From positions 110,099 to 174,098 of the forward strand of contig DJOB01000005.1 in NCBI GenBank assembly GCA_002437105.1: a stretch of DNA of 64,000 nt, in the 5' to 3' direction. This document shows positions 5,699-62,617 of this stretch, in pieces (the first letter of the stretch is position 1; every line of letters begins with the position of its first letter). The position numbers and the translations under genes are program-made. Source of the stretch: Bacillales bacterium UBA6449. GTDB lineage: Bacteria; Bacillota_I; Bacilli_A; RFN20; CAG-288. The notes beneath the pieces are model-generated. The model was not told the origin of the DNA and did no database searches. It saw only the letters and a program-made list of their open reading frames with translations.

Positions 5699-6862
5699 AT
5701 GTTGAAAAGTCAGAGCCGGGAGAGAGGTCTACTCATTTTAGGCGGCGGCGTAGCCGGCTATTTTTTGGCCTGCTTTGCCAAGGATCTTAACCCCTCTCTT
5801 CCGGTGCGGGTGATCGATCGGTCCAACCGTAAGCCGCTGAGCCGAATCCTCGTCAGCGGCAACGGGCGCTGCAATATCTTCAACCGAGCGCTGCTCGAAG
5901 ATCGGATTCCCGACGACCCGCTCTTCGCCCAGCTGCGGCGTATATGGCGACCGGGATGCGGTCAGCACACCATGGCTGAATTCGCGCGGCTCTTCCAGGT
6001 TCCTCTCTACAGCTTGGGCGATCTCATGTACCCCTTCTCCAATCGCTCCGATACCGTGTATCAGGCGGTTTTGAAGAAGGCTGAAAAGCTAGGTGTCGAG
6101 ACCATCTACGGTGATATCGAAGAGGTCGATTGCTCCCGCCATATCGTTTCTGTCGATACGGGTGAAGAGAAGGTGGTGAGGATGGCTAGCGACCTTATCG
6201 CTCTGTGCTTAGGAGGCAGCTGCTTGAACTATCCTCAGTTTGACTGGGGAATGTTTAAGGGGCTGAATGCTGAGGTCGTGCCGTATACGCCCGCCTTGGG
6301 GCCGATACCTGTCCGGGAGGATCTGTCCAGCTTGGAGGGATATCGGTTGCGAGGGACGCTCCAACTCTGCGATCGCGGGCATCCGGTCTACCGCGAAGAG
6401 GGGGAAGTCCTATTTCGCAAGCGGGAGATCTCGGGCATATGCGCCTTTAACTGCTCGATTCGGCTCGATCCGGCCCGCGTGTCCGATTTCAGCCTCGCCC
6501 TCGATGGTACCCGGCACGATGGGACGCAGCTGCCGCCTGCCGCCGCGATCGACCTGTCGGTGCCTTCGCGGGTGGCTCAGCTGGTCTTCATGCAGGCGCG
6601 TGCGAGAGCCATCACTCCCTATGCCGCGCTGAGCGATCTTCGCTTCTCGGTCGCGGGGCTGCCGACATTTAAGAACAGTCAGGTCTCATGTGGTGGCGTG
6701 AGCCTGGATTCGCTAGATAGGGATCTTCAGCTGAAGGGAAATCCCGGTATCTATTGTCTCGGGGAAATGGTGGATATACCCTTGCCCTGCGGCGGATTCA
6801 ATATCGGCATGTGTATAGTCGAGGCGCTGCTGGTAGCCGAAGCTCTGAGTCGAGGTGAATGA
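5699..6862 (+). CDS. FAD-dependent oxidoreductase of the HI0933/YhiN (BaiN-like) family
   Basis: It has an N-terminal GxGxxG box ('ILGGGVAGYF'), the family motif 'VSGNGRCNIFN' and a C-terminal 'GGFNIG'. Confidence 0.75.
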   Translation: MLKSQSRERGLLILGGGVAGYFLACFAKDLNPSLPVRVIDRSNRKPLSRILVSGNGRCNIFNRALLEDRIPDDPLFAQLRRIWRPGCGQHTMAEFARLFQVPLYSLGDLMYPFSNRSDTVYQAVLKKAEKLGVETIYGDIEEVDCSRHIVSVDTGEEKVVRMASDLIALCLGGSCLNYPQFDWGMFKGLNAEVVPYTPALGPIPVREDLSSLEGYRLRGTLQLCDRGHPVYREEGEVLFRKREISGICAFNCSIRLDPARVSDFSLALDGTRHDGTQLPPAAAIDLSVPSRVAQLVFMQARARAITPYAALSDLRFSVAGLPTFKNSQVSCGGVSLDSLDRDLQLKGNPGIYCLGEMVDIPLPCGGFNIGMCIVEALLVAEALSRGE

Positions 6863-6865
6863 AGT

Positions 6866-8320
6866 ATGGAAAATAATAAAATGGCGCGAGAGAACTACCC
6901 TCCGGAATTGAAGGACTGTATTCGTTACATCTTCCGGACCTATTTCGATACGGAACCAGCTCCCTTCTTCGAGAACTACTTCCGCGAGAGAATCCCTGAA
7001 GAGGAGCGGCTGGGAACCGCTCGGGTGATGCAGCGGGTCTTGGATCGGCTGTCGAAATCCAATGCCCTGCCCACTCGGGAAGCTCTCTACTCGCAGATCT
7101 TCGACCTAGCCAACTATTCCTATGGTGAGTGGTGGTTCAAGATCCGTGATCTTCCCTCTTCGCAGAAAAAGAAGGAGTTGACCGAGGATAGCCAGTTCAT
7201 CGATCGGATCGCCTTTCTGGTCTCGCTCAAGTTCAATATCCTGGTTCGGGGGGTGAGGCAGGGTAAGCTTCACATCTCGTCTCTCTCCCCCTACTCGCCG
7301 ATCAACACCGATCTGAAGGCCCTGCTCATGCTGATGATCAACCTGAACTCTCCGCTGGCGAAGAACGATCCGAATAAGAGTTTGGTCTTCGATCTCTTCG
7401 ACCGGATTCTCCGCAAGGCGCACGGTACCCTGAAAATGCTTTCCATGGGTCTGGGAAACGATGCTTACGCCTCCTGGAGAACCCTGCATGAAGCGGAGTG
7501 CATCCTCTCTCTTCTAGTTAAGGATGGCGACGCTCTCGAGCGGGTGTACGTGCAGCATATCGTCTATAATAACGCCTTCCGCGGCACGATCGCTGACACC
7601 GCGAAGTCCGATGCGATCTTCGGACAGATGAAGGAGAGGATGAAGGAATACGGGCTGAAGTCCAAGGATATCAAGAAGTTCATCGAGTACGGCTGGCTCT
7701 ATTCCTCATCCGCTTATCTCCGGCTGAGTCGGGATTCCGAACTCTTCAGAAAATACGCGGTTCCCCTGGAGAGGAATAAGGATGAAGTCACCAGGTTTGT
7801 CCTGGGGAAGGGACCGGCCAAGGACAGTCTCGACTATGCCGATTTCCAGCGGGACAAGGTGGAGCTTCTGACTTGGGATCACGATCGTCTGAAGGACTTC
7901 AAGCTCAATTTCCGCGATGGGATCGAGAATCTGGCGGGATTGACCCGGTATTCCGAGTGGTATGAGACCGCTTCTGAGGTCACCCACTCCTCGCCTGTGT
8001 TCTTCTATGCCAACGATCAGTTCTTCTTCGACCTATCCACCGTGGCGCTCTATCAGCTATCATTGAGGGTGGCGCGGCTGTACGTCAAGACCATGGAGAA
8101 GAGCTTCTCGAGCTCGCCGCAGACCGCCGGCATGGTGAATGTGCTGCTGAACGAGTGCACGTTCATGTGCCGGGATCAGCGCCAGCGCTTCAAGCAGATC
8201 TACGGCATCAACGTGCTGGATGAGGATGATGGGATGAACGATATGGCCGATATGGAATCCGGGCCCTACGGTGTGACGAAACCGGGTCCGATACTCAAGG
8301 AAGAGGAGGATAAAGGCTGA
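6866..8320 (+). CDS. Hypothetical protein (484 aa, predicted all-helical, no recognisable family)
   Basis: It is a long ORF with the same codon style as its neighbours. It starts 3 nt after the upstream stop and ends 1 nt before the next start. RBS GAGGTGA lies upstream. Confidence 0.7.
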   Translation: MENNKMARENYPPELKDCIRYIFRTYFDTEPAPFFENYFRERIPEEERLGTARVMQRVLDRLSKSNALPTREALYSQIFDLANYSYGEWWFKIRDLPSSQKKKELTEDSQFIDRIAFLVSLKFNILVRGVRQGKLHISSLSPYSPINTDLKALLMLMINLNSPLAKNDPNKSLVFDLFDRILRKAHGTLKMLSMGLGNDAYASWRTLHEAECILSLLVKDGDALERVYVQHIVYNNAFRGTIADTAKSDAIFGQMKERMKEYGLKSKDIKKFIEYGWLYSSSAYLRLSRDSELFRKYAVPLERNKDEVTRFVLGKGPAKDSLDYADFQRDKVELLTWDHDRLKDFKLNFRDGIENLAGLTRYSEWYETASEVTHSSPVFFYANDQFFFDLSTVALYQLSLRVARLYVKTMEKSFSSSPQTAGMVNVLLNECTFMCRDQRQRFKQIYGINVLDEDDGMNDMADMESGPYGVTKPGPILKEEEDKG

Positions 8321-41111: not shown

Positions 41112-44100
41112 CTATTTAACCTGACGCGTCCTGCCATCGGTTAAGGAATAGAGGATCATTTGGATGTCGTCAAGAGGTATTCCTTTAAGTTTAGAAATGG
41201 CATTTTGATAGACTTTCAGCTGGTTATCGTAGTGCTGATCATCAAGTCTTTTAGTCTTGTAGTCGACGATTATCGATGAAGGGTGACCGCTCTGAAGATT
41301 CTTGAGAATGAGTAGATCGATCCTACCTTCAGTCTCCGTGTCAGGATCGAGATACGACCACTCAGGGTAGAATGAGATATCCGACCCGTTCTGGCTCTCC
41401 TTAACTAGATCCTGTATGAGTTTTGATCGTATGAATCTATCTACAATCCGGTGAGCTTCTTTATCCTTGATGAACGAGCTATCTAGAGGTTTCTTAGGGA
41501 AGGTATCCCAATTGAGCAACTCTAGATATTTATGAAGGGTAGTGCCAAATATTTCATCTTTAAGAGTCGCAACGCCATGCGTTCCTGAACTAGCTCGACT
41601 TTTACTGCTCTGCTGTCCCTTGGTATGGGTTGAAATTGTGTTCGAGGGCACATCGATCGAACCGGTGATATCGGTAGTGACTGGATAAGGAACCTTGGTA
41701 AAGATATTCCAGTTATTTAGAGTGTTATCTTTCAATTGCTTATCTAGAGAACTATCTAAGGTAAATCTGATATCAGGTGTGGAACGAACGATGACTTGGC
41801 CATAATTAAGTCTATCGTTGGGAGCTATAGAGGCCTGTAAAAAAGCTTTCTCGGTATTACCTGGGGCGATGAAGATGACACTATTGATAGCCCTGGTGAC
41901 AGCAACATAGTAAAGGCGTACAAATTCGCTAGCATTTTCAAGGGAATCTTTATATTTAAAGACTTTGCATTGAGGAAGGAAGATGCTCTTAGAATCGGGG
42001 CTCGTTACACACCTTAATAGTTTATTTTCGTTAAGAATAAAACCTAGATCTGAGTCGAAGGTGACGCCAGAGGATTCATTTGGATTTTTGGAATTTGACG
42101 ACACATCGAAGGGAAGGATAACGATGGGGTACTCTAGGCCCTTTGATTTATGGACGTTGATAATAGTGACAGCACCATTTCCGTCTTTGACACCATACTC
42201 CGCCGTGGTTTCAATCTCTTCATTATTCGCAGCTCCAGAGGAGAAGAATTGGGAGATGGTAGAGAGGCTCTGGCCGAGGTCGGATAGTTCCTGTACCTTC
42301 AGATAGAACCACTCAAAGGCTTCGAAATTCTTCTCTGTGTTATTCAGGGTTGAAATCTTTGTTGTGAAATCAAAACTATTGCAGAGCAAGCGGAATATCT
42401 CGATCGGGCTAGTTAGATTGGGATCGATCAATTTATTGACTCTATCATCGATAAACCTTATGAGTTCATTATCTTTTAGCTCATTGATTCTTCGGATCGA
42501 GTTATTGATCTTCTGAACATCTTGGATCACCTGGGCATCACTGCGCTGGAATATGAAGCTTCTTTCGATGCTGGCCACCGATCTTTTAAGCCCGCTGATG
42601 TCGCCCTTATCTAGTAAACCTTTATTCCTCTTAGCTTTTAGCAGGATAGATTCAAGCTTTAATAGTGAGGCGGCCGTGATGGCAACAATTGTCTTAGTCA
42701 TATTAGTATTAATCTTGATAGTAAAGGGAATATTTCTCTTACTTAGAGAATGTATGATGAAATCCAATTTCTTCTTTTTATCTATCAAAATTGCGAAGCT
42801 GCCATAACTGATGGGAGCCTTCTCGCCCTCTTTCTTGGAGGGGTAAATAATTTTTTTAGATTTGACTAAGCTATCGATCTTTTCAGCAACCATTTCCGCG
42901 GTGGCAATGTCTCTCTGATATTTTTTCTTGGGTGTTTCAAATAGTTTGAGTGAAGTATCATCGAATTCGATGGCTTTACCCTTTAGAATCTCATTGGCCA
43001 TGATGAGCTGCTGGTTAGAATCGTTTTCGTAATCAACGCCGCCCAACTCGGGTGTCATAAGTTTCTTAAAGATCTGGTTGGTCTGATCGATAACATCCTG
43101 GGAGGAACGGAAATTCTTCTTCATCGCGATCACGGTGAAATCGTATTTCTTAGGTTTAGAGGAGTATTTGTCTAAGAAGAGTTGGGGCACAGCACCCCGG
43201 AAACGATAGATCGATTGCTTTACATCTCCCACCATGAAGGTGATCTTTTTAGAGAAGAGTTTAAATGTGTCGGAAGTATCAGGATTTTTGGCTGTACAAA
43301 AGTCTTTGTACTCTTTCTCTTCCGTACCTAGAATCCTCAGCATCTCTTCCTGTGTGTGGTCAGAGTCCTGGTATTCATCGACCATGATCGACTTTATGCG
43401 GAATCTTTCGGCGGCGCGAATCTCCAAGTTATCTCTGAGAAGCTGGATGCACTTCAACTTGATATCAGAGAAGGTATAGCAGTTATGTTCGGCTTTGAAG
43501 GATTGCAGTCTATCTTCTACTGACTTCTCAATGGAGTAGGCGTATGCCACCAGCTTTGCGATATCGTCGTCATAATCTTTCTGTGCGGTGGTGCTAATTA
43601 CATTTTCTAAGCTACTGACGATTTTATCTAATGGATCCTTGAAGTTTTTCTTGGCTGCGTCTGCCAAAACTTCTCCATAGCAATTTTTCCACCATGATCT
43701 GTCATTTGGATGAATTAAATTCTCTGACTCACCTTTTTTGGGCTTGCAGCCTGTGAAGCTGATGCAGTCGAGATCACTTCTCATCCTACTTATTCTGTCA
43801 TCAGCATGGGAAATCGCAATCCACTCTCTTATCTTCTCTTCTAGGAATTCGATCAGTGCCGGAAAGAAAGGTTGACTGTTGCTTGCTATAGCTTCCTGTT
43901 GAGGCTTAACGATTTGGTCTCGACTAACTAGGACATGGATGTACCACTTTATTTTTTCGATGACCATATTGGTGAATTGCATCTGAATATTTTCGATGGC
44001 AGAAGTCGAGGCGTATTTATTTTTGTAGTCGGCTAGTTCGCCATCTAGATTTTGGTCGTGCTCTCGAGCCTTTTTTATACTTTCTATAAAGGATTTGAGG

Positions 44101-44681
44101 AATGATCCATCTCTAGCTGTACAAATGTTATAGAAATCTTCTAATCGCTTGTTATTTCCCTCGTTTAAGCTCTTGTATTCATCGTTTAGCTTTTCATCTA
44201 GGAAATTATCGAAGATGAAATTCTCGGCCGTTTCAGAGATGTTGGTGTAGGCCGGATCGATATTGAGCACATCGGCATACTTTCTAACTATCTGGCTGCA
44301 GAAGGAATCAAAGGTGCAGATGGTGGCGGAAGCCGATTTTGCTGCTTCAGCTCTTAGACGCTCTGCGACCTCCGCGTCGAGGAAACTGAGTTCTGGCACT
44401 CCTTTATCTATATCATCTGCCAGTTTATTTAAAGTCTTGCCGATTCTTTCCTTCATCTCGTTGGCGGCATTGTTGGTAAAGGTGATAATGAGCATCTGAT
44501 CGATCGAGAGACCTTTGACGAGAATTTGGAAAATCACCCGGTATGTCAAGGCGAAAGTCTTTCCACATCCCGCACCAGCAGAGAGGAGGACGTTCTCATT
44601 CCAAGCCGTGATGGCCTTTATCTTTTCATCGTCGATATTTTTCTTCTTCAGAAATTCTATGAACTGTTCTTTAGTGCACAT
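41112..44681 (-). CDS. addA: ATP-dependent helicase/nuclease subunit A (AddA/RexA)
   Basis: UvrD-like motifs are 'SAGAGCGKT', 'TFTNNAANEM', 'VDEYQDS', 'VGDVKQSIYRFRGA', 'HKSKGLEYP' and 'YVAVTRA'. The C-terminal RecB nuclease motif is 'GRIDLLIL...IVDYKTK'. Confidence 0.92.
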   Translation of the reverse strand: MCTKEQFIEFLKKKNIDDEKIKAITAWNENVLLSAGAGCGKTFALTYRVIFQILVKGLSIDQMLIITFTNNAANEMKERIGKTLNKLADDIDKGVPELSFLDAEVAERLRAEAAKSASATICTFDSFCSQIVRKYADVLNIDPAYTNISETAENFIFDNFLDEKLNDEYKSLNEGNNKRLEDFYNICTARDGSFLKSFIESIKKAREHDQNLDGELADYKNKYASTSAIENIQMQFTNMVIEKIKWYIHVLVSRDQIVKPQQEAIASNSQPFFPALIEFLEEKIREWIAISHADDRISRMRSDLDCISFTGCKPKKGESENLIHPNDRSWWKNCYGEVLADAAKKNFKDPLDKIVSSLENVISTTAQKDYDDDIAKLVAYAYSIEKSVEDRLQSFKAEHNCYTFSDIKLKCIQLLRDNLEIRAAERFRIKSIMVDEYQDSDHTQEEMLRILGTEEKEYKDFCTAKNPDTSDTFKLFSKKITFMVGDVKQSIYRFRGAVPQLFLDKYSSKPKKYDFTVIAMKKNFRSSQDVIDQTNQIFKKLMTPELGGVDYENDSNQQLIMANEILKGKAIEFDDTSLKLFETPKKKYQRDIATAEMVAEKIDSLVKSKKIIYPSKKEGEKAPISYGSFAILIDKKKKLDFIIHSLSKRNIPFTIKINTNMTKTIVAITAASLLKLESILLKAKRNKGLLDKGDISGLKRSVASIERSFIFQRSDAQVIQDVQKINNSIRRINELKDNELIRFIDDRVNKLIDPNLTSPIEIFRLLCNSFDFTTKISTLNNTEKNFEAFEWFYLKVQELSDLGQSLSTISQFFSSGAANNEEIETTAEYGVKDGNGAVTIINVHKSKGLEYPIVILPFDVSSNSKNPNESSGVTFDSDLGFILNENKLLRCVTSPDSKSIFLPQCKVFKYKDSLENASEFVRLYYVAVTRAINSVIFIAPGNTEKAFLQASIAPNDRLNYGQVIVRSTPDIRFTLDSSLDKQLKDNTLNNWNIFTKVPYPVTTDITGSIDVPSNTISTHTKGQQSSKSRASSGTHGVATLKDEIFGTTLHKYLELLNWDTFPKKPLDSSFIKDKEAHRIVDRFIRSKLIQDLVKESQNGSDISFYPEWSYLDPDTETEGRIDLLILKNLQSGHPSSIIVDYKTKRLDDQHYDNQLKVYQNAISKLKGIPLDDIQMILYSLTDGRTRQVK

Positions 44682-44683
44682 AT

Positions 44684-47356
44684 CTAGTCCTCTGAATCAT
44701 CATCGTCATCATCATCGTCTATCTGTTTTTGGTTATATTCCGCATCGGTCAATATGTCATTACGACGCTTGAGACCAGTCAGATCGAAGGAGATATCTTG
44801 GAAAGTATCTTCATGTGAGTCATTATCAGATGAACCTGAAGGGTCGTACGGAAAATATGGGAACCATATCTTATTTTTGGTTATAGGTGATGTTATCGGT
44901 CCACCATTTTGAAGGTAGCCGATAATTTCATTGAGCTGTAGGTAAGCTTTCTTTATAATGTCCTGATAATCTTGTGAGCAGCCAGTTTCTTTGAATAGTT
45001 CATCAGGCTTGGGACCATATCCATTTTTCAAGCTAGCGTATTGACTCTCGATATCTTTTTTTAGACTCTCCTTTTTAGCTGCCCAAACCGTGTCATTCCT
45101 TTTGCCATCCGCACTTACAGATTTGATGGAATCGTCTTGTATCTGGTTCATCAAACTGTAGCCTGTAAATATATTTTTCGTGGAATTTGCTCTGCTGAAA
45201 TTATCGCTCTGAAGGCTCACGATAAAGGCCCCAAAGGGATAATTTAGATTCGATAGCTGGGTATTATCTTTTGATTTCGATAGTTCATTATAAAAGAGTA
45301 TGTAATAGGGAAGTTGCATGGTATTCCCCATGAGCGACTGTTTAGCATTTACTTTTTGGCTCGTATTCGTTGTCTTCTTAAAATCGATTATCGCCGCTTT
45401 TCCTTCTAGATCTTTTCCCTCGATGCTGTAGATCGCATCTGTCTTCAGGGTGAAGTAGAACTTGTCAGGAATCAGTTCGACTTTAGCGCTGAATTCATCC
45501 CTCTTTGTACCATCAGAGTCATTATCCGGGTGAATCAGATGGAAACCAACTTGCTTTTCTGCATCTAATAGGACCGGCTTAACATTATTCTCATAGTCCT
45601 TTAGTGCTCTCTTCATGAAGAACTCATATTCGTCGCGTCCGTGACCATCCTGAGGGAACGTGATGTCCTTAAGGATCGATTCGATTGATGCTTTTTCATC
45701 AAATTCATCACGCTCTTCGGCCGCTAGATGGAGAAAGCTTCCCTCGAGACTATTGAGGTTATCACTACGGAGTTGAAGTATATTCTGGCAATAGTAAAGG
45801 AACGGATTCTTGTAGTAATTATCTATGCTGGAATAGGAAAGGGTAATCTTCTTGTCCTCTTTGGAAGGATCGAAGTATTTTTTCAGATAGGAAACAGTCT
45901 GATCATCCGAGCTGAATTCCGGATTGTAGCTGCCGAAGTTATCGTGGAGCTCTTTTCTAATCGATATTGCTTCCGTGGCTAGGTGGCTGGTTATTCTCGT
46001 CCGCTGGTATAGATCATCTCCGAGGCTGGCGATAATCTTGAGGTCTGCGGGAGTGGAGTTAGCATCCTTGATACCGTAGGCATTGTACTTCGCTTTCGAT
46101 TCGCACCAGGGAGTCTCTTTTAGGAAGGAGCAGCTGCCGAGGAAATAGACGGGTACAAACGAGGTAAAGGAATCTGATTTGGCGCGGGAAAGATATAGAT
46201 CGGGTGCTAAAGACAATATGGCTTCAATGTCGTTTCTGTTGCTGATATTTTTGGTCACGCTATCCGATTGATAGGTGGCTTCAGCTTTTAGACCATCTGG
46301 AATTAAATCTTTATCTTTGACTGGCTGTACTAGATTACTCGAAAAGCCGAGTATCAGTAGATTCTTCTTATAGGGGACAGCCGAGAATGAGTTGACGACA
46401 GTGATGGCGTTCGTTCCGTTCTGGGCGATAGATATGTTAGAGATCTTCGCTTTCAGGTAATCCTTGATGAGATCCTTGTCTCTGTTCGGGTCAATCAATG
46501 AATTGGCGAGGGCGTATTCGACTTGACTCACCGCCTCCTGGAGTTTAGCGATAGCTGGGTTATGACTATTATTTGAATTGAGATCGGAGATGGGTTGCGC
46601 ATCAAGGTTATTTACATATGATTCGATAGCCTTTTGGATAGCGGCGATATTCCTTGACTTGGTCAGAGGCAGGTTGAATTTAAGCCCGTACACGGGTTCT
46701 AGCATGGCTAGATAGTTGTTGTAGATACGAGGACAGAGGATGCATATGTCGCTCAGTTTGATCTCATCTCCTTTCTTGTGGATGAGATCGAATAGATGGG
46801 ACATCGCGAAGAGGAGTTCAGTTCTAGCTTTGGGGAAGACTGTAATCTGGCTGACTTTTCTATTCAAGAGGCTGGTGTGGTTAAAGATTGGGCTGGGTGA
46901 GAATGGATCGATGGTCTGGATCTTCTCGGGGGCGGCGGCACTCGCGCTCCGAATCTTATCTAGTGCCTCATAGAGGTCAGGAGCACTCTCTTTGCTGTAT
47001 CCGATAACGTAGATTGGTGAATCCAACAGTTGCTTTTTCCCGAGATCGTCGAAGATAAGAAATTTCTTGGCTTCATCTCTATTCGTAAAGAGTTTGTCGA
47101 TAGTGACGATGGTCGAAGCTGGCCTTTTGTCCTTCAGCATCCTGAGGGTCTCTAGCTGATTCTTTGTCGCATTGAATCCTTTGAGACCTTTACGGGAAGC
47201 GTACCCGAGAATATTGAAATCCTCGATCTTGCCAAAGGCGATATCGAGAACTTCCCTCTTGTCCATGAAGCAGGCTCTAGAGAAGTATCCTCTATCGATA
47301 ATTAAATCCTTTAGATATCTTGGAGTGATGACTACTGCTCTCTCTGAAATGCTCAT
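44684..47356 (-). CDS. addB: Helicase/nuclease subunit B (short AddB/RexB-like; no Walker A, no C-terminal Cys cluster)
   Basis: It sits immediately upstream of addA with a 2-nt gap. It is 890 aa with a PD-(D/E)xK-like 'LKTDAIY...AAIIDFKKT' and a tail 'QIDDDDDDDDSED'. Confidence 0.7.
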   Translation of the reverse strand: MSISERAVVITPRYLKDLIIDRGYFSRACFMDKREVLDIAFGKIEDFNILGYASRKGLKGFNATKNQLETLRMLKDKRPASTIVTIDKLFTNRDEAKKFLIFDDLGKKQLLDSPIYVIGYSKESAPDLYEALDKIRSASAAAPEKIQTIDPFSPSPIFNHTSLLNRKVSQITVFPKARTELLFAMSHLFDLIHKKGDEIKLSDICILCPRIYNNYLAMLEPVYGLKFNLPLTKSRNIAAIQKAIESYVNNLDAQPISDLNSNNSHNPAIAKLQEAVSQVEYALANSLIDPNRDKDLIKDYLKAKISNISIAQNGTNAITVVNSFSAVPYKKNLLILGFSSNLVQPVKDKDLIPDGLKAEATYQSDSVTKNISNRNDIEAILSLAPDLYLSRAKSDSFTSFVPVYFLGSCSFLKETPWCESKAKYNAYGIKDANSTPADLKIIASLGDDLYQRTRITSHLATEAISIRKELHDNFGSYNPEFSSDDQTVSYLKKYFDPSKEDKKITLSYSSIDNYYKNPFLYYCQNILQLRSDNLNSLEGSFLHLAAEERDEFDEKASIESILKDITFPQDGHGRDEYEFFMKRALKDYENNVKPVLLDAEKQVGFHLIHPDNDSDGTKRDEFSAKVELIPDKFYFTLKTDAIYSIEGKDLEGKAAIIDFKKTTNTSQKVNAKQSLMGNTMQLPYYILFYNELSKSKDNTQLSNLNYPFGAFIVSLQSDNFSRANSTKNIFTGYSLMNQIQDDSIKSVSADGKRNDTVWAAKKESLKKDIESQYASLKNGYGPKPDELFKETGCSQDYQDIIKKAYLQLNEIIGYLQNGGPITSPITKNKIWFPYFPYDPSGSSDNDSHEDTFQDISFDLTGLKRRNDILTDAEYNQKQIDDDDDDDDSED

Positions 47357-56776: not shown

Positions 56777-57427
56777 TCACCTCTGCAGCAGGGATTCGGC
56801 CAGGTTAGACATGATTCCTAATGCGATTCCAGATCGGTTGGCTGCGGCATTTTCCAAGCGGAGAAATGCTGATTTTCTCTGCAGACGGTCCTGCGATGAG
56901 ATCAGATCGATGATGGCTAGATATGCCGCGGCATCCGGGTCTTTCAGGTCGCTAGCATCGGAGAAGTGCTGGCGGGCTTTCACGAGATTCTGAGGCACGC
57001 CTAGGGCGTGAAAGTGGAATACTCCGAGCTGATAGTGAGCGGTGCTCAGTCCGAGCGCGGCTGATTGGGTGAACATGTCGAAGGCTATTTTCGCATCTCT
57101 CTTTACCCAGTAACCCGCTGAGTAGAAGAGGCCGAGCAGGTAGAGACACTCCGCATACCTCTTCATTATGCCGAGGCGGAATATCTCCATCAGGGCATAG
57201 GAGGAATCCTTATCGATCTTTCTCTCATAGGTGGCGAAGTAGGCCCAGAGGAAGATCGCTTCGCATCCGCCTTCGATATCGTTTTTGGCTTTCTCTCTAA
57301 ATTCGTTTAGCCTCTCCAGGGGGAAGGAGATGAAATCGGAGATATAACCTGTGCTATGCAGTGTTTTAAACTCCTTATAGGTATCTGCCTTCACCCTTTC
57401 GTATCGGTAGAAATTAGCTCCGAACAT
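56777..57427 (-). CDS. Sel1-like (SLR/TPR) repeat protein
   Basis: Repeats of the type 'LGLFYSAGYWVKRDAKIAFDMFTQSAALG' and 'AHYQLGVFHFHALGVPQNLVKARQHFSDAS' are present. RBS GGAGG is present. Confidence 0.75.
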   Translation of the reverse strand: MFGANFYRYERVKADTYKEFKTLHSTGYISDFISFPLERLNEFREKAKNDIEGGCEAIFLWAYFATYERKIDKDSSYALMEIFRLGIMKRYAECLYLLGLFYSAGYWVKRDAKIAFDMFTQSAALGLSTAHYQLGVFHFHALGVPQNLVKARQHFSDASDLKDPDAAAYLAIIDLISSQDRLQRKSAFLRLENAAANRSGIALGIMSNLAESLLQR

Positions 57428-57536: not shown

Positions 57537-58292
57537 ATGCCATTTAGACTCTTTGCTGCCCTTAATGAAAATATTCCGAAGAAGATGTCCAGCACTCTGG
57601 AGAAATCCTTCTACGACCATTACGGCTACCTTCTTTCCGAACACGAATCGACTCAGCCTTTCAACAACCTTCAGCAGCCGTTCGATCTGATCAAGGCCTA
57701 CATCGTCATCAGAGGTCTGCTAAATAAGGAGAAACTGGAATCCTACGAGCCGATCATCCAGAATTCCGCCAATCTCGCACCCGAGAGCATGGGGGCGATG
57801 CACACCGGTCTGCCCTTCTTCTATTTCCAAGGGAAGAAGATCTATATCCCCTTTTTCCCCACTCGCCTGAATATCAAATACGACCGTGACCTGCCTTCTG
57901 TCTTCTCTGAACCGCTTCGTTCGGTGCTGACTGATCAGGGGTTTGAAAGCTTTTTTGTCGATCCTTTCACCGCGTATGGCCTCCCTTTGTTCGAGTCGGA
58001 GTTCACGAGCTTGGTTCCGGTGATGAAGCAGGATAATCTTGAAGCTTTTATCTCCCTTTCCTTCGATACCATCTTTATCATTTCCGACCAGGGTACATTG
58101 GAGTATTCCATCCCACTCTTCGATTCGAAACTCGATAGCTTCGATCGCCGGAACCTTATCTCCCGGGTCCGGAGGGCTCTAGACCCCTTTTTCCGCTTCG
58201 ACCGCGAGGGATTCATGCGGGCGTTGAATCGTGAGGGATTCATCTCTCGTAAGCTTCTCACCAAGTTAGAGGAGCAGTCGAGAGAGCGATGA
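57537..58292 (+). CDS. Hypothetical protein (251 aa)
   Basis: The ORF has RBS GAGGTGGG 7 nt upstream. No recognisable motifs were seen. Confidence 0.6.
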   Translation: MPFRLFAALNENIPKKMSSTLEKSFYDHYGYLLSEHESTQPFNNLQQPFDLIKAYIVIRGLLNKEKLESYEPIIQNSANLAPESMGAMHTGLPFFYFQGKKIYIPFFPTRLNIKYDRDLPSVFSEPLRSVLTDQGFESFFVDPFTAYGLPLFESEFTSLVPVMKQDNLEAFISLSFDTIFIISDQGTLEYSIPLFDSKLDSFDRRNLISRVRRALDPFFRFDREGFMRALNREGFISRKLLTKLEEQSRER

Positions 58293-58347: not shown

Positions 58348-58423
58348 GGGGCTGTAGCTCAGCTGGGAGAGCACGTGCTTTGCAAGCATGAGGTCGCGGG
58401 TCCGAGCCCCGTCAGCTCCACCA
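58348..58423 (+). tRNA. tRNA-Ala (anticodon UGC), with an atypical T-loop
   Basis: It reads GGGGCTG-TA-GCTCAGCTGGGAGAGC-...CTTTGCAAG loop (TGC)...GCGGG-TCCGAGC-CCCGT-CAGCTCC-A-CCA. The G3:U70 identity pair is present. The T-loop reads TCCGAGC instead of TTCGAxC. Confidence 0.85.
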
Positions 58424-58435
58424 TATTGCAATAAC

Positions 58436-58465
58436 AGAAGTGATACAACGTCACTTCTTTTTTTA
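58436..58465 (+). terminator. Rho-independent terminator after tRNA-Ala
   Basis: Stem agaagtga (58436-58443) pairs with tcacttct (58451-58458), then TTTTTTT. Confidence 0.85.
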
Positions 58466-58541: not shown

Positions 58542-59324
58542 AACACCAGTAATGTGATCGTTTGCGGGCACACCAGACGACTTGCAGCACTTAAGCTCGG
58601 CCTGAAAGAAGTCCTTTGCATCAAAGCTGATGATTTGACAGACGACCAAATAAGAGCCTTCCGCGTGGCAGATAACAAAACTAGTGAGCTTTCAACTTGG
58701 GACTTGGACAAACTCAAAATTGAACTTGGGGAAATCAAGCTCGATATGTCCGACTTCGGCTTTGAAGATTTGCCGGACCAAATGAAAGAACTTCCTGAAG
58801 ACGACGAATTCGATGCCACACCGAACTTGAAAAAGCTGCGTTTGTAAAGAACGGCGACATTTGGAAACTCGGAAGGCATAGGCTCATGTGCGGGGATACC
58901 ACGACTGGAGATGTCGAAGTTCTGATGGAAGGAAAGTATGCGGACCTTTGCGTTACCGACGCTCCATACAACGTTGACTATGAAGGCGGCACGGGGATGA
59001 AAATCAAAAACGATAACATGAGCCAAGATGAGTTCTATTCTTTCCTTTCCAAGGCATTTTCCAACATTTCCCAAATCGATGAAACCTGGGGCTTGCATCT
59101 ATGAGTTTTTTGCCACAAGGGAACACATCAATTTCGAGACCGCACTCAAAGAAAACGGACTCAGCCCCAGACAAGAGCTCATATGGAGCAAAAACGGTCA
59201 GTTCATCTTGGGAAGACAGGATTACAACTGGGACTTTGAGCCATGTTTCTATGGTTGGAAAGAAGGAGCAAGCCACAATTGGTATAGCGACAGGAAGCAG
59301 AAATGCGTGGGACTAAAATTTTGA
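58542..59324 (+). pseudogene. ParB-like nuclease domain / N6- or N4-DNA methyltransferase, 5'- and 3'-truncated with at least two frameshifts
   Basis: Three consecutive frames read 'VIVCGHTRRLAALKLGLKEV...FRVADNK' (ParB-N), 'KNGDIWKLGRHRLMCGD...LCVTDAPYNVDY' (MTase motif IV, DPPY changed to DAPY) and 'LIWSKNG..GRQDYNWDFEPCFYGWKEGASHNWYSDRKQ'. The SAM-binding C-terminal half is absent. Confidence 0.8.
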
Positions 59325-59411
59325 AATCCTAAAAATCGAAAAAAAGTTTCAAGAATGATAGGGCTTTCATACTATAATAGTTAAATAGTTAAAACAAAGG
59401 TGGACATAGTT

Positions 59412-60818
59412 ATGAAGTTCAAGAAGTTTTTCGTTTTCTGCTTAGCCCTTGCTTTTCCGTTCACCATAGTAGGGCGAGAAAAAATGGTATCGTCACAAAT
59501 CGATGGTATCAAAGACAAAACGGCTCAAGTGATTAGACGTGCGGTCAATCAATCAGCTGGAGATACGGAAGACCCTGATGAAATTTTTAGCCGTGCCATA
59601 GATGGCTACAAAGACGAATTCAAGGATTATCTAGATGTCACCGCTTTGAACGTCCAGGACAAGGAAGCTGTCAATCTTCCCGATTTCGACATCGATTACG
59701 TGGCGCCGGAATTCTACGATGTCATGTATGATTACCAAACCAAGCTTGAAGCATCGCTTACTATCATTCAGCTTGAAAGATACGAATCATTGAGAAAGCA
59801 GGATTATAATTTTGATAGATATGTCACTTTGAATGACCTCAAGTTTTCAAATCTGAATCTATCCTTGAAATACATTCACGACGTCAAACCCATCAATCCA
59901 ACACTGCCTATCACGCCCGTCAATCCGACTCTCCCTGGTAGTGGTAGTTCTACCACAAGAGCGGCTGCTGTTGCTACAGCTGGCATCATCACAATTTTGT
60001 CTAATGCTGGACTTGGTGAAACTGTCATATCTGCATTCACCGCATGCATTTCGACAATGACCACAGGCCTATCGACAAGCTGGATTCCATTCATTGGATG
60101 GGCATTGGCTGTAGCCTTGATTACTGGTGCTTTGATTGCCTTGGTTGTGATAATAGTCAAAAACTGGGACAAGATTAAGGCAGCTATAAATGACATCAAA
60201 GCTTGGTTCCTTGAGCAATTCTCAAGGTTTTCATCTCTCATCGAGTCATTCTTTGCGGATGCCATTGCACAAGGAAACGAATCGGTCGTTGCCTATAGAA
60301 AAGAAATAGATGGTAGAACAAGAGAGTTTGTTGATACCGAGATTACAACTGACGTTTTATCTAAAATTGTAGATAAATGTTTGAAAAATGACACTGTGTA
60401 TCTTCTAGGGCATATTGGCGATCCAGAGAAAGGCGAGCATTGGTGGATTTGCTACGATACAACCAAGCCACAGGTTGTTATAGACGAGAAGCTTTATAAT
60501 TTTGGCATCTGCACTTACACTTGGTATAACAACACCGCAAAAAGAATGATGGCTTACGGCTCGTTACTAAATGGCGATTATTCATCTTTGATTTACGAAA
60601 GACCAGATAAAGGCACTGCCCTCGTGCATGGGGAAGAGAATTTGATTGGGTGGAATCATTATCATTTAGGCCACAAGGTCACTAATAATGGCTCTTCCGA
60701 GGTGATAAAGTATGAAACAAAGCCTTTAAAGTGGGCTCATTCCATGTTTGGAAAATTGTCTTACAGAAGTGTAGGCGGTAGTGATTATACTTACTACCCG
60801 AGTGGGAATCTTGGATGA
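59412..60818 (+). CDS. Uncharacterised secreted/membrane-anchored protein (signal peptide, Pro-rich tandem, TM region, C-terminal ~140-aa domain shared with the next two ORFs)
   Basis: ATG 59412 lies 8 nt after AAAGGTGG; the track's GTG is at 59400. The product has 'MKFKKFFVFCLALAFPFTIVG', 'PINPTLPITPVNPTLP', the hydrophobic 'WIPFIGWALAVALITGALIALVVIIV' followed by KNWDK, and the His-rich 'GWNHYHLGH'. Confidence 0.75.
   Translation: MKFKKFFVFCLALAFPFTIVGREKMVSSQIDGIKDKTAQVIRRAVNQSAGDTEDPDEIFSRAIDGYKDEFKDYLDVTALNVQDKEAVNLPDFDIDYVAPEFYDVMYDYQTKLEASLTIIQLERYESLRKQDYNFDRYVTLNDLKFSNLNLSLKYIHDVKPINPTLPITPVNPTLPGSGSSTTRAAAVATAGIITILSNAGLGETVISAFTACISTMTTGLSTSWIPFIGWALAVALITGALIALVVIIVKNWDKIKAAINDIKAWFLEQFSRFSSLIESFFADAIAQGNESVVAYRKEIDGRTREFVDTEITTDVLSKIVDKCLKNDTVYLLGHIGDPEKGEHWWICYDTTKPQVVIDEKLYNFGICTYTWYNNTAKRMMAYGSLLNGDYSSLIYERPDKGTALVHGEENLIGWNHYHLGHKVTNNGSSEVIKYETKPLKWAHSMFGKLSYRSVGGSDYTYYPSGNLG
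60675..60732 (+). repeat. Copy 1 of a 58-nt imperfect direct repeat (inside the 3' end of the 59412-60818 ORF)
   Basis: By manual alignment it matches 61808-61865 at 51/58 positions. It encodes KVTNNGSSEVIKYETKPLK. Confidence 0.85.
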
Positions 60819-61321
60819 TGAGATACTGTGGCCTTAAGTCTGAAGTTAGAATTTGCCGTGCCTTTGAAAATTTTGGACTTCCCGACTATTGCCTGTGCGT
60901 AAGCAAATGCAAAAACGGACTTTGCAAAATCGTTGTCTTTGATTCTTCAAATGGCGAGCCATACAAATATTGCACAACTTGGGTTGAAAATTTAATTCCT
61001 TTCCATGATGACAAAGAAAAAAAATACAAAAGCATATATCAACCAAAGATAATCGATATAAAATGCGAGTCTATCCAAATTTGCTCGAAAGAGAAAATTT
61101 ACGCTTTGAGATTCGTTGACGAGCTGACGCTTGATATAGGCCAAAAAATCCAAGTCACCGACCCTACCAGTCCTTCTTTTTCAAACTATGGAATTATCGA
61201 AGATGTTATTTCGAATATGGAGTATTTAATCCAAAACGATTTCATTCCAAAATATAAGATTAAACTTGATAATGGAGAATTGTTTTTCTTCGATTCTTAT
61301 CAAATCTCTAAGACTAGTTGA
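60815..61321 (+). CDS. Uncharacterised soluble Cys-rich protein (168 aa), putative paralogue of the upstream C-terminal domain
   Basis: Its start overlaps the upstream stop (ATGA). Shared motifs are 'KIVVFDSSNGEPYKYCTTW' and the C-terminal 'KIKLDNGELFFFDSYQISK'. Confidence 0.7.
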   Translation: MMRYCGLKSEVRICRAFENFGLPDYCLCVSKCKNGLCKIVVFDSSNGEPYKYCTTWVENLIPFHDDKEKKYKSIYQPKIIDIKCESIQICSKEKIYALRFVDELTLDIGQKIQVTDPTSPSFSNYGIIEDVISNMEYLIQNDFIPKYKIKLDNGELFFFDSYQISKTS

Positions 61322-61360
61322 TACTACTCATCCAGATAGTCTTAAAAATTAGTAAAAGGG

Positions 61361-61873
61361 GTGACTCTTTTGAAATACAAATATGGCGACATAGTTTATT
61401 GCACAGGCAACCAAATTTCTAATGAACCCTTTCCTATGCAAGTTCTATCTTATGATAAAAAAACTGGGAAATACCTTTGCATTGATACGACGGAATATTC
61501 TCCAGGGGATTATGGAACATGTCTCTATCTAATTGCTGAGAATATGCTAGATTATTTTGAAAAAGTGGATAAAGATTATTCTGAAGAAATCAAGAAAATC
61601 TATAATTCAATGTTCCCTAAGAATTTAGACACACGATATTTCAATATATATGATGTGACCGAAAAAGAATTATTGGATTATAGAAAAGCTGTGTTGCGTA
61701 GAGAGGAATTCTATATTCCAATTGCTACAGACGATGAAAGAAGATTAGAGAGTTTCACAGAAGTGATAAGTGGAAGATTGCATCTGCTGATTATAGGCAT
61801 AAGAAGCAAGGTTACTGATAATGGCTCTTTTGAGGTGATACAGTATGAAACAAAGCCCTCAAAGTTGATTTAG
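61361..61873 (+). CDS. Uncharacterised soluble protein (170 aa), putative paralogue of the same domain
   Basis: The start is GTG 61361 or TTG 61370, after AAAAGGGG. Shared motifs are 'GDIVYCTG', 'DKKTGKYLCIDTTEYS', 'YGTCLYLIAEN' and the tail 'KVTDNGSFEVIQYETKPSK'. Confidence 0.7.
   Translation: MTLLKYKYGDIVYCTGNQISNEPFPMQVLSYDKKTGKYLCIDTTEYSPGDYGTCLYLIAENMLDYFEKVDKDYSEEIKKIYNSMFPKNLDTRYFNIYDVTEKELLDYRKAVLRREEFYIPIATDDERRLESFTEVISGRLHLLIIGIRSKVTDNGSFEVIQYETKPSKLI
61808..61865 (+). repeat. Copy 2 of the 58-nt imperfect direct repeat (3' end of the 61361-61873 ORF)
   Basis: It matches 60675-60732 at 51/58 positions, in frame in both ORFs. Confidence 0.85.
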
Positions 61874-61953: not shown

Positions 61954-62430
61954 TCAATCCTTTAGATCTGCTGGGATCAATTCGGCCACCTTGATCGCGT
62001 CAGTTAGCTTGATTCCGACCTGAGAGCCCAGCCTCCCTCCGGAGATGAAGATCTTCTCCTTATCTAGAGCAGAGGAGTCGATATAGTGCTTCATCCGCTT
62101 CTTCATTCCGATCGGAGAGCAGCCGCCATGGACATAACCCGTCAGGGGGAGGAGCTGTTTTAGCGGGATCATCTCGATGCTCTTTTCACCCGTGGCCTTC
62201 GCTGCCTTCTTTAGATTCAGCTCGGCATCGACCGGGATGAGAAAGGCGTAGTGTTCATTCGATTTTCCGACTGCGACGAGGGTCTTGAAGACCTGGTTGT
62301 GATCCTCTCCCAATATTCCCGCGATATCCGACCCCGTCAGTTTCGGGTTCGGGTCGTAGAACCGTGGATCATACTGGACCTTCGCCTTGTCCAGCAGCCG
62401 CATCACATTGGTCTTTATCTCTTTAGGCAT
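61954..62430 (-). CDS. ybaK: Cys-tRNA(Pro)/Cys-tRNA(Cys) deacylase YbaK/EbsC
   Basis: It carries 'VFKTLVAVGK', 'LNLKKAAKATGEKSIEM' and 'TGYVHGGCSPIGMKKR'. The start is ATG 62430 after AGGAG; the track's longer ORF adds 16 residues. Confidence 0.88.
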   Translation of the reverse strand: MPKEIKTNVMRLLDKAKVQYDPRFYDPNPKLTGSDIAGILGEDHNQVFKTLVAVGKSNEHYAFLIPVDAELNLKKAAKATGEKSIEMIPLKQLLPLTGYVHGGCSPIGMKKRMKHYIDSSALDKEKIFISGGRLGSQVGIKLTDAIKVAELIPADLKD

Positions 62431-62617
62431 GTCTTTTCTGCTCCTGCGTACCTTATATTTTATAGAGATATGGTTCAAATGGGTTAAAGGTGGGCTTCAA
62501 CTGCGGTTTGCAGTTGTAAAAAGTGGCGCGCTGGGCTATATTTTTCCTGTGAAAAGGTGGTCTTTCGTCCGCGGGTTTTCTTATTTTTGGACGTTAGACT
62601 GAAGAGGAAATGTCATC

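Follow-up and report, generated by a model that had tools for sequence, protein, structure and literature searches.

In polymorphic toxin systems such as CdiA-CT/CdiI, Rhs-CT/RhsI and MafB/MafI, a constant 5' body and a variable 3' domain meet at a conserved motif, and one recombination at the 3' tip of the locus replaces the toxin cassette and brings along an immunity gene (Zhang et al. 2012, PMC3482391). The MuF toxins likewise combine a polymorphic C-terminal domain (CT) with an immunity gene and are found on temperate phages of Bacillota, near terminase and portal genes (Jamet et al. 2017, PMC5576092). Furthermore, Tde1, a type VI secretion system (T6SS) effector, has an N-terminal glycine-zipper segment that resembles tape-measure proteins and is needed to cross or permeabilise the cytoplasmic membrane of the target cell (PMC10240207). 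Here we describe a cassette of three tandem open reading frames, ORF1, ORF2 and ORF3, in a stretch of 64,000 nucleotides from Bacillales bacterium UBA6449 (assembly GCA_002437105.1, contig DJOB01000005.1, positions 110,099 to 174,098 of the forward strand; hereafter the window). The locus looks like an undescribed module of the toxin-immunity type on phage remnants in gut Bacilli, with toxicity as a predicted and delivery as a possible property. To our knowledge, almost nothing is known about how the mostly uncultured RF39/"Mollicutes"-like lineages of gut Bacilli compete or resist phages.

ORF1 codes for a membrane protein of 468 amino acids (aa). The search for its relatives recovered a family of 68 clusters (90% identity) in a collection of 5.8 billion proteins together with the genomic neighbourhoods; all members are unnamed or "hypothetical" and stem from metagenome-assembled genomes (MAGs) of Bacilli, "Mollicutes", Erysipelotrichaceae-like bacteria, Ca. 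Enteromonas and Ca. Onthovivens. Six of the contigs carrying this Bacilli-type module (L016, L020, L023, L026, L034 and L035) are labelled Hallerella, Bacteroides uniformis, Escherichia coli, Lachnospiraceae or Faecalibacterium ('cleanbin' MAGs) and are probably mis-binned or mislabelled records. As in polymorphic toxins, the ORF1 family shows a constant 5' body and a variable 3' part with a sharp boundary between the two. This boundary lies at a conserved motif, FFADAxAQGNES, which is analogous to the VENN or PxxxxDPxGL motifs of polymorphic toxins, and the domain beyond it (aa ~292-468) is referred to as the CT in the following. Again as in polymorphic toxin systems, loci of several different subtypes occur within one genome (L026 and L034 in one genome; L036, L038 and L039 in another).

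All ORF1 homologues with readable downstream sequence are followed by a small ORF on the same strand, at a distance of -58 to +23 nt except for one locus at +279 nt. In a survey of 32 loci the CTs were clustered by average linkage and the downstream proteins were clustered independently. CT subtype A, which is that of the window, was followed by partner family F1, the family of ORF2, in 11 of 12 loci, and subtype B by family F2, to which ORF3 belongs, in 7 of 7. Three further CT groups were paired with F7, F4 and F3 in 3 of 3 loci each. Subtype and partner family thus co-vary in 27 of 28 classifiable loci, a nearly one-to-one pairing like that between polymorphic toxins and the cognate genes directly 3' of them, with immunity as the predicted function of the small proteins here. 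Since F2 pairs with subtype B, ORF3 is the partner of a CT subtype that is absent from the window.

The partner proteins fall into more than one group. For ORF2, three close homologues were found, and more distant members were recovered by gene context. The ORF3 family comprises 8 clusters, 6 of which are 120-137 aa long, and its homologous region always ends in EFYIP[TV]R. F2 is homologous to F7 (hhalign probability 95%) and probably also to F3 (55%), and F2, F3, F4 and F7 all begin with the motif KFKxGDxV. In Pfam the partner families other than F1 and F2 showed nothing beyond hints to SH3, Tudor and DUF7585, all below threshold. F1 is unrelated to F2, F3, F4 and F7. F1 and F2 are two separate families of small proteins, both unrelated to the CT of ORF1. 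None of the partner proteins has a signal peptide, as read from the sequences. At 8 loci a frameshifted ORF1 homologue stands beside an intact partner gene, as would be expected if the partner protects against something.

Some further observations concern the partner genes and their surroundings. The partner encoded at L023 (7383-8153) is a protein of 256 aa with two tandem F2-type repeats, i.e. a fused double immunity-like protein. A family of small genes, F6, lies a few hundred bases 3' of the partner in L002 (8758-9120), L015 (6807-7064) and L030 (7863-8123); the member in L002 matches Pfam DUF4314 at a borderline level, and the one in L015 adjoins a clear DUF4314 gene. A subtype-B gene (about 6560-7985) is intact in L002, L004 and L005, from three metagenome samples, and is frameshifted at different positions in L001 and L003, from two other samples, with an identical F2 gene downstream. 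These splits reflect either independent inactivation of the effector or assembly errors.

Comparison of the window with other loci suggests how a subtype-A effector gene came to stand in front of a subtype-B partner gene. P0004, a homologue with a subtype-B CT, is 91% identical to ORF1 in the N-domain, 88% in the hydrophobic region and 21% in the CT; for a second homologue, P0003, the corresponding values are 56%, 60% and 79%. In blastn the window matches the subtype-B locus L006 over 59304-60283 (80% identity) and again over 61329-61719 (93%). Between these two matches there are 1045 nt in the window, comprising the subtype-A CT (CT-A) and ORF2, and 478 nt in L006, comprising the subtype-B CT (CT-B). 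The closest subtype-A locus, L016 (92% identity at the aa level), has in common with the window only 59331-61317, which is exactly the module of ORF1 and ORF2, and its flanks are unrelated. A three-way DNA alignment places the left junction in the nearly invariant block that encodes FFADAIAQGNES. Up to this block the window, subtype-A and subtype-B loci are near-identical, and beyond it the window follows subtype A. The right junction lies directly after the last codons of ORF2. Just 5' of ORF3 the window encodes THPDSLKN followed by a stop codon, and the subtype-B gene of L006, like P0004, ends with VHPDSPKN.

According to these alignments the locus in the window was of subtype B until recombination at FFADAxAQGNES replaced its CT by a cassette of CT-A and ORF2. 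What remains of the earlier arrangement are the final 8 codons of CT-B and, as an orphan, ORF3. This pattern agrees with the event published for polymorphic toxin loci, in which toxin domain and downstream gene are exchanged jointly (PMC3482391). Displaced scraps and orphan partner genes on the 3' side, a further trait of polymorphic toxin loci, are found elsewhere in the family as well: in L031 a truncated CT-B precedes an F2 gene and a truncated CT-A an F1 gene, in L019 the F1 gene is followed by a CT scrap of 23 aa, and additional partner genes are present in L014, L018, L022, L026 and L033. Cassette swaps with mapped junctions offer a natural experiment on how the specificity of effector and immunity protein co-evolves within one fold.

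The initial annotation had proposed that the C-terminal part of ORF1 and the whole of ORF2 and ORF3 are copies of one novel domain, recognizable by a set of short ordered motifs. The three tandem ORFs on the same strand are present (Table 1), the first two overlap by ATGA as stated, and all peptide strings quoted as motif examples occur in the translations. The consensus patterns given for the second and third of the three motifs, as written, misfit their own example strings unless extra insertions or deletions are allowed. When ORF1 and ORF3 were compared by BLASTP, the sole significant match was between residues 422-440 of ORF1 and residues 150-168 of ORF3. With 15 of 19 positions identical it is far beyond chance, and it corresponds to the C-terminal motif of the proposed set. 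ORF2 is not part of this match, and the BLASTP comparisons of ORF1 with ORF2 and of ORF2 with ORF3 revealed no similarity (E ≥ 0.39). In the DNA the matching segments are the two copies of a 59-nt direct repeat (88% identity). The match is thus real but a repeat in the DNA and not a diverged protein motif. Comparison of the family profiles by hhalign gave probabilities of 0.05-0.7% among the three families, for whole-family and subtype-specific profiles alike, and hence no support for a shared domain. The small proteins are also not paralogous to ORF1, contrary to the suggestion of a membrane sensor with soluble paralogues. As the ORF3 core contains no histidine and ORF2 only one, neither can carry the histidine triad of the ORF1 CT described below.

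The copy of the motif in ORF3 lies within a tail that is peculiar to the window. Homologues of ORF3 end near residue 121, and the 50 additional residues of the window protein (121-170) have no counterpart in any distinct homologue. In the near-identical sibling contig L040 a deletion of 55 nt at 61767-61821 shifts the frame, and the motif is not encoded. Because it is absent from the homologues and frameshifted in L040, the tail is regarded as read-through into junk. The 59-nt patch itself is a scrap of a subtype-A CT, fused to ORF3 by read-through; it codes for a variable hairpin that connects the HxH strand to the third of the invariant histidines. The preceding 87 nt (61720-61806) were considered as a further derivative of a subtype-A CT, which was rejected given a local alignment score of 25 compared with 22 ± 3 for shuffled sequences. 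They have no detectable origin, and only the 59-nt patch scores above the shuffled controls. Apart from this patch, the last 8 subtype-B codons are the only orphan piece of a CT in the window. For annotation, the case illustrates that a motif common to two ORFs can be a recombination scar and not a domain.

The CT itself is an alpha/beta domain. Modelled alone by AlphaFold2 (AF2), it is predicted very confidently, with a predicted local distance difference test score (pLDDT) of 93 and a predicted template-modelling score (pTM) of 0.88. In alignments the residues conserved throughout the family include Y369, T370, A376, H416, H418, H443, F446 and G447, and all CT subtypes keep the motifs YTWY, HxH and HSFFG. 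Y369, T370, F446, G447 and the three histidines H416, H418 and H443 are invariant in the family. In the model H416 and H418 share one beta-strand and H443 is located at the start of a later strand. This triad suggests catalysis more than a scaffold role. An assignment to 2H phosphoesterases or to a HIT-type motif was dropped on account of a spacing misfit and lacking fold support. Foldseek searches against the PDB with the full-length and CT models and against BFVD with the full-length model yielded nothing at E ≤ 0.001, with TM-scores below 0.35, and profile searches against PDB sequences gave only spurious matches to de-novo-designed helical proteins. An exhaustive hidden Markov model (HMM) search with the CT profile of 1.84 billion representative proteins returned 60 proteins, in which the CT mostly forms the C-terminus of proteins of 355-490 aa; the rest are short fragments. 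With a confident prediction and no structural relative, the CT is a candidate for a new enzyme fold.

The full-length AF2 model of ORF1 (pLDDT 86, pTM 0.82) gives the following layout for the body. The N-terminal signal peptide or signal anchor has Kyte-Doolittle windows of 1.3-1.7. Classification as a lipoprotein was dropped, since the candidate cysteine, at position 10, stands too near the start of the signal peptide and lacks conservation. An acidic helical N-domain (pLDDT > 90, 40-91% identity across the family) is followed by a proline-rich linker (aa 159-180) and three hydrophobic helices at aa 182-198, 203-220 and 226-250. The first two are weakly hydrophobic, and aa 226-250 form the only strong transmembrane helix (Kyte-Doolittle maximum 3.05). 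Two amphipathic helices lie between these and the FFADAxAQGNES motif. The hydrophobic segment matches only tape-measure families in PHROG (best E = 8e-8). Such matches occur in 15 of 18 family members tested and cover roughly aa 105-304 of ORF1, mostly aa 184-291. Tape-measure proteins are long (usually > 600 aa), helical, and encoded between the tail assembly chaperones and the distal tail genes. ORF1 was rejected as a tape-measure protein given its 468 aa, its signal peptide, the lack of adjacent tail genes and the partial nature of the similarity. With regard to topology, hydrophobicity and flanking lysines suggest that the CT would be cytoplasmic if the protein crosses the membrane once or three times, and that it would be outside with two spans only. 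A signal peptide is present, but from the strong helix at aa 226-250 the protein is predicted to stay in the membrane. No secretion genes were seen in the neighbourhoods of the loci examined.

None of the three ORFs belongs to a family of Pfam, NCBIfam or PADLOC (for PADLOC with no match at E ≤ 1) and none has a PDB match, so that membership in an already described family finds no support. PHROG gave no family for them either, apart from the tape-measure matches of ORF1. A tblastn search of the INPHARED phage genomes gave no match. The surroundings of the module are phage-like. The methylase pseudogene 5' of ORF1, of a kind found on phages or mobile elements, comes directly after tRNA-Ala. It lacks both ends and is broken by two frameshifts, residues 55-315 of the intact protein being matched in frames 2, 1 and 2. 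ParB-methylases or their remnants are also found 5' of the ORF1 homologues in L002, L013, L015 and L028. L028, in which ParB-methylase, MetK, the ORF1 homologue, its partner, amidoligase and TerL follow one another, seems to represent the intact arrangement. L014 and L015 are IMG/VR contigs with TerL, a portal fragment and serine recombinases, and in L014 the module comes after TerL and the portal fragment. By the methylase remnants, the gene order in L028 and the phage genes of L014 and L015, the module is cargo of a temperate-phage-like element, of which the window keeps only the module intact. In the composition profile the cassette lies in a low-GC island (GC 0.38-0.44 compared with about 0.55 around it), which is limited by tRNA-Ala(TGC) on the left and by a convergent YbaK-type tRNA-editing gene (61954-62478) on the right. 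This island looks like the last remnant of a phage-like element integrated next to tRNA-Ala. Conflict genes near the module are GmrSD in L013 and an AAA_21 ATPase with HNH in L010. L010/L017 hold a second copy of codons 1-101 of the ORF1 homologue (2074-2376 and 6001-6303, 100% identity). The duplicate lies 3.9 kb 5' of the intact gene, and the copies flank an HNH/EcoRI-methylase-like gene and the gene for a 628-aa AAA_21 ATPase, as if a defence-like cassette had recently inserted here.

Table 1. Features of the ORF1-ORF3 cassette and its 5' flank (window positions)
Feature	Position	Strand	Basis or remark
tRNA-Ala(TGC)	58348-58423	+	ARAGORN; left edge of low-GC island
Terminator-like hairpin after tRNA-Ala	58436-58458		terminator scan
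ParB-N6/N4 DNA methylase pseudogene	58551-59336	+	blastx against intact 418-aa protein of L014
TATAAT box of ORF1	59373-59378		
Shine-Dalgarno sequence of ORF1, AAAGGTGG	59397-59403		good
ORF1, 468 aa, effector-like membrane protein	59412-60818	+	
ORF1 N-terminal signal peptide/signal anchor, MKFKKFFVFCLALAFPFTIVGR, aa 1-22	59412-59477	+	Kyte-Doolittle; pattern kept across family
ORF1 acidic helical N-domain, ~aa 50-165, conserved	59559-59906	+	pLDDT and family identity
ORF1 hydrophobic module, aa 181-250	59952-60161	+	Kyte-Doolittle; PHROG matches
Junction motif FFADAIAQGNES (S291 invariant), left crossover of cassette swap	60249-60284	+	three-way DNA alignment
ORF1 variable C-terminal domain (CT), subtype A	60285-60815	+	alignments; AF2 model
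59-nt direct repeat, copy 1, encoding variable beta-hairpin KVTNNGSSEVIKYETKPLK	60674-60732	+	
ORF2, 168 aa, family F1, immunity-like partner of CT subtype A	60815-61321	+	
Relic of displaced subtype-B CT, last 8 codons and stop (THPDSLKN)	61326-61352	+	translation; L006 alignment
ORF3, whole ORF, 170 aa	61361-61873	+	likelier start TTG 61370
ORF3 core, family F2, orphan partner gene of CT subtype B	61361-61719	+	
ORF3 read-through tail, not conserved	61720-61873	+	absent from all distinct homologues
59-nt direct repeat, copy 2, scrap of subtype-A CT	61807-61865	+	alignment against shuffled controls

The start of ORF3 given as likelier in Table 1 was chosen because the ORF3 homologues begin there. 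By the ATGA overlap of the first two ORFs, ORF2 is translationally coupled to ORF1.

Taken together, the locus is probably a phage-borne polymorphic module of the effector-immunity type with one orphan partner, residing in a decayed remnant of a temperate-phage-like element, a reading that we hold with moderate confidence. Its anatomical part is much more certain than its functional part. The suspicion raised in the initial annotation of a polymorphic-toxin-like locus with displaced leftovers was essentially right, as the locus joins a 5' body that stays constant to a 3' cassette that can be swapped along with its own partner gene, and keeps leftovers of the previous cassette; the specific claim of a shared domain was wrong, and ORF2 and ORF3 are partner (immunity-like) genes and not orphan C-terminal modules as had been supposed. 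With regard to function, the CT would be an enzyme-like effector built around the invariant histidine triad and harmful in the cytoplasm, and ORF2 would bind and neutralise it, i.e. confer immunity. ORF3 may have been kept because it neutralises subtype-B effectors from relatives or incoming phages. The tape-measure-like segment would anchor ORF1 in the membrane of the producer and possibly insert into the membrane of another cell. With one or three spans the CT would face the cytoplasm, the compartment of the partner protein. The CT may act in other cells, as an inter-bacterial toxin, or in the producer, in abortive infection or addiction.

Several points weigh against this interpretation. 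The CT matches no known toxin family or fold, and the locus has no domain in common with any described family of polymorphic toxins. The CT subtypes all keep the core motifs and hence are one fold with one histidine triad instead of unrelated toxin domains, and the 1.84 billion representatives contain the CT in no further protein architecture. Different delivery systems have the domains of classical polymorphic toxins in common, unlike the CT, which was never found in another delivery context. Furthermore, the strong transmembrane helix in the middle of the protein, a further difference from the systems named at the outset, argues for ORF1 staying in the membrane of the producer, and there is no evident delivery route or secretion system nearby. 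Finally, the many frameshifted homologues could be due to decay or to errors in MAG assembly.

The other described systems are also only partly alike. MuF toxins share the phage context, but ORF1 has no Phage_Mu_F domain (Pfam; its PHROG matches are to tape-measure families only), its signal peptide and membrane helices make packaging into the capsid unlikely, and the usual neighbours are accessory genes for ParB-methylase, MetK and amidoligase. Tde1 provides a precedent for a toxic effector in which a tape-measure-like segment serves as a translocation device (PMC10240207). It is, however, delivered by a T6SS in Proteobacteria and has an Ntox15 DNase toxin, and no injection machinery was seen here. 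Moreover, the ORF1 segment is not a canonical GxxxG repeat, and the PHROG families that it resembles are tape-measure families from other phages. The S8-PTS of Gram-positive bacteria (PMC9424270) was rejected as a relative, since its architecture with a BetaH domain and an S8 peptidase differs. The idea of hosts without a cell wall was dropped, as peptidoglycan is predicted for the majority of RF39 (PMC10868615).

A more far-reaching version of the effector-immunity interpretation joins these features. The locus would then stand for a new class of phage-borne polymorphic effectors, with a membrane-insertion module of tape-measure origin, in place of any known secretion system, as the means of their delivery or triggering. 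The histidine triad would be the active site of an enzyme fold not seen before, the variable beta-hairpin beside this site would set the specificity for SH3-like immunity proteins, and silent scraps such as the 59-nt patch would serve as gene-conversion donors for the hairpin. As a whole this combination is doubtful.

An unlikely explanation, although the best surviving rival, is a membrane-anchored toxin-antitoxin or abortive-infection module of a prophage, in which ORF1 stays in the membrane of the producer. The extracellular N-domain or the tape-measure-like segment would sense an incoming phage, for instance through tape-measure insertion or DNA injection, and the cytoplasmic CT, freed from ORF2, would stop the cell; subtype diversity would reflect an arms race with phage inhibitors, and the orphan partners would be anti-addiction genes. 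The predicted topology, which puts the CT and the partner without signal peptide into the same cytoplasm, is consistent with this, and so are the tape-measure-like character of the hydrophobic segment and the location in phage accessory regions with the conflict-gene neighbours of L013 and L010. Like type II toxin-antitoxin and prophage abortive-infection modules, the locus is a translationally coupled pair of genes, one of them for a small cytoplasmic protein with specificity for a (predicted) harmful domain, and like these it sits on prophages and outlasts the decay of the remaining element. In contrast to toxin-antitoxin modules, the effector comes first and is a membrane protein of 468 aa with a large (predicted) extracellular domain, the diversity is cassette-wise with orphan scraps, and neither PADLOC nor Pfam gives a toxin-antitoxin match. 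The lack of a PADLOC match equally speaks against abortive infection, and an effector-first order with arrays of orphan scraps and partners is more typical of polymorphic toxin loci (PMC3482391).

We give even less credence to ORF1 as a non-toxic phage membrane protein, for example one for superinfection exclusion or an injection block, which would mimic the membrane segment of a tape-measure protein and have the small protein as a chaperone or regulatory subunit of its cytoplasmic domain. Such a protein would fit the phage context, the PHROG matches to tape-measure families only and the tight translational coupling with the partner gene. It leaves unexplained the orphan partners, the partners that outlive frameshifted effectors and the replacement of domain and partner as a cassette, and the invariant histidine triad suggests catalysis, not a scaffold. 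Three diverged copies of one novel domain are highly improbable and this reading is close to refuted: the look-alike strings exist and the 19-aa patch common to ORF1 and ORF3 is real, but the patch is a DNA-level scrap in a non-conserved, frameshift-tolerant tail, BLASTP and hhalign show nothing else, ORF2 and ORF3 are without the histidine triad, and the ORF3 family is related to the partner families F7 and F3 instead.

If the effector-immunity interpretation is true, the module would be a family-specific conflict system whose N-domain, CT fold and at least five partner families are all without annotation.

Some further features of the window lie outside the cassette. Just 5' of tRNA-Ala an ORF of 251 aa (57537-58292, + strand) has no match in Pfam, PHROGs, PADLOC or NCBIfam, and its neighbour (56777-57427, - strand) is a gene for a Sel1-repeat protein. 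A second low-GC stretch (41112-47356, - strand; GC 0.41-0.43) is not an island and encodes a helicase-nuclease pair of the AddA/AddB type with UvrD helicase and PD-(D/E)XK domains.

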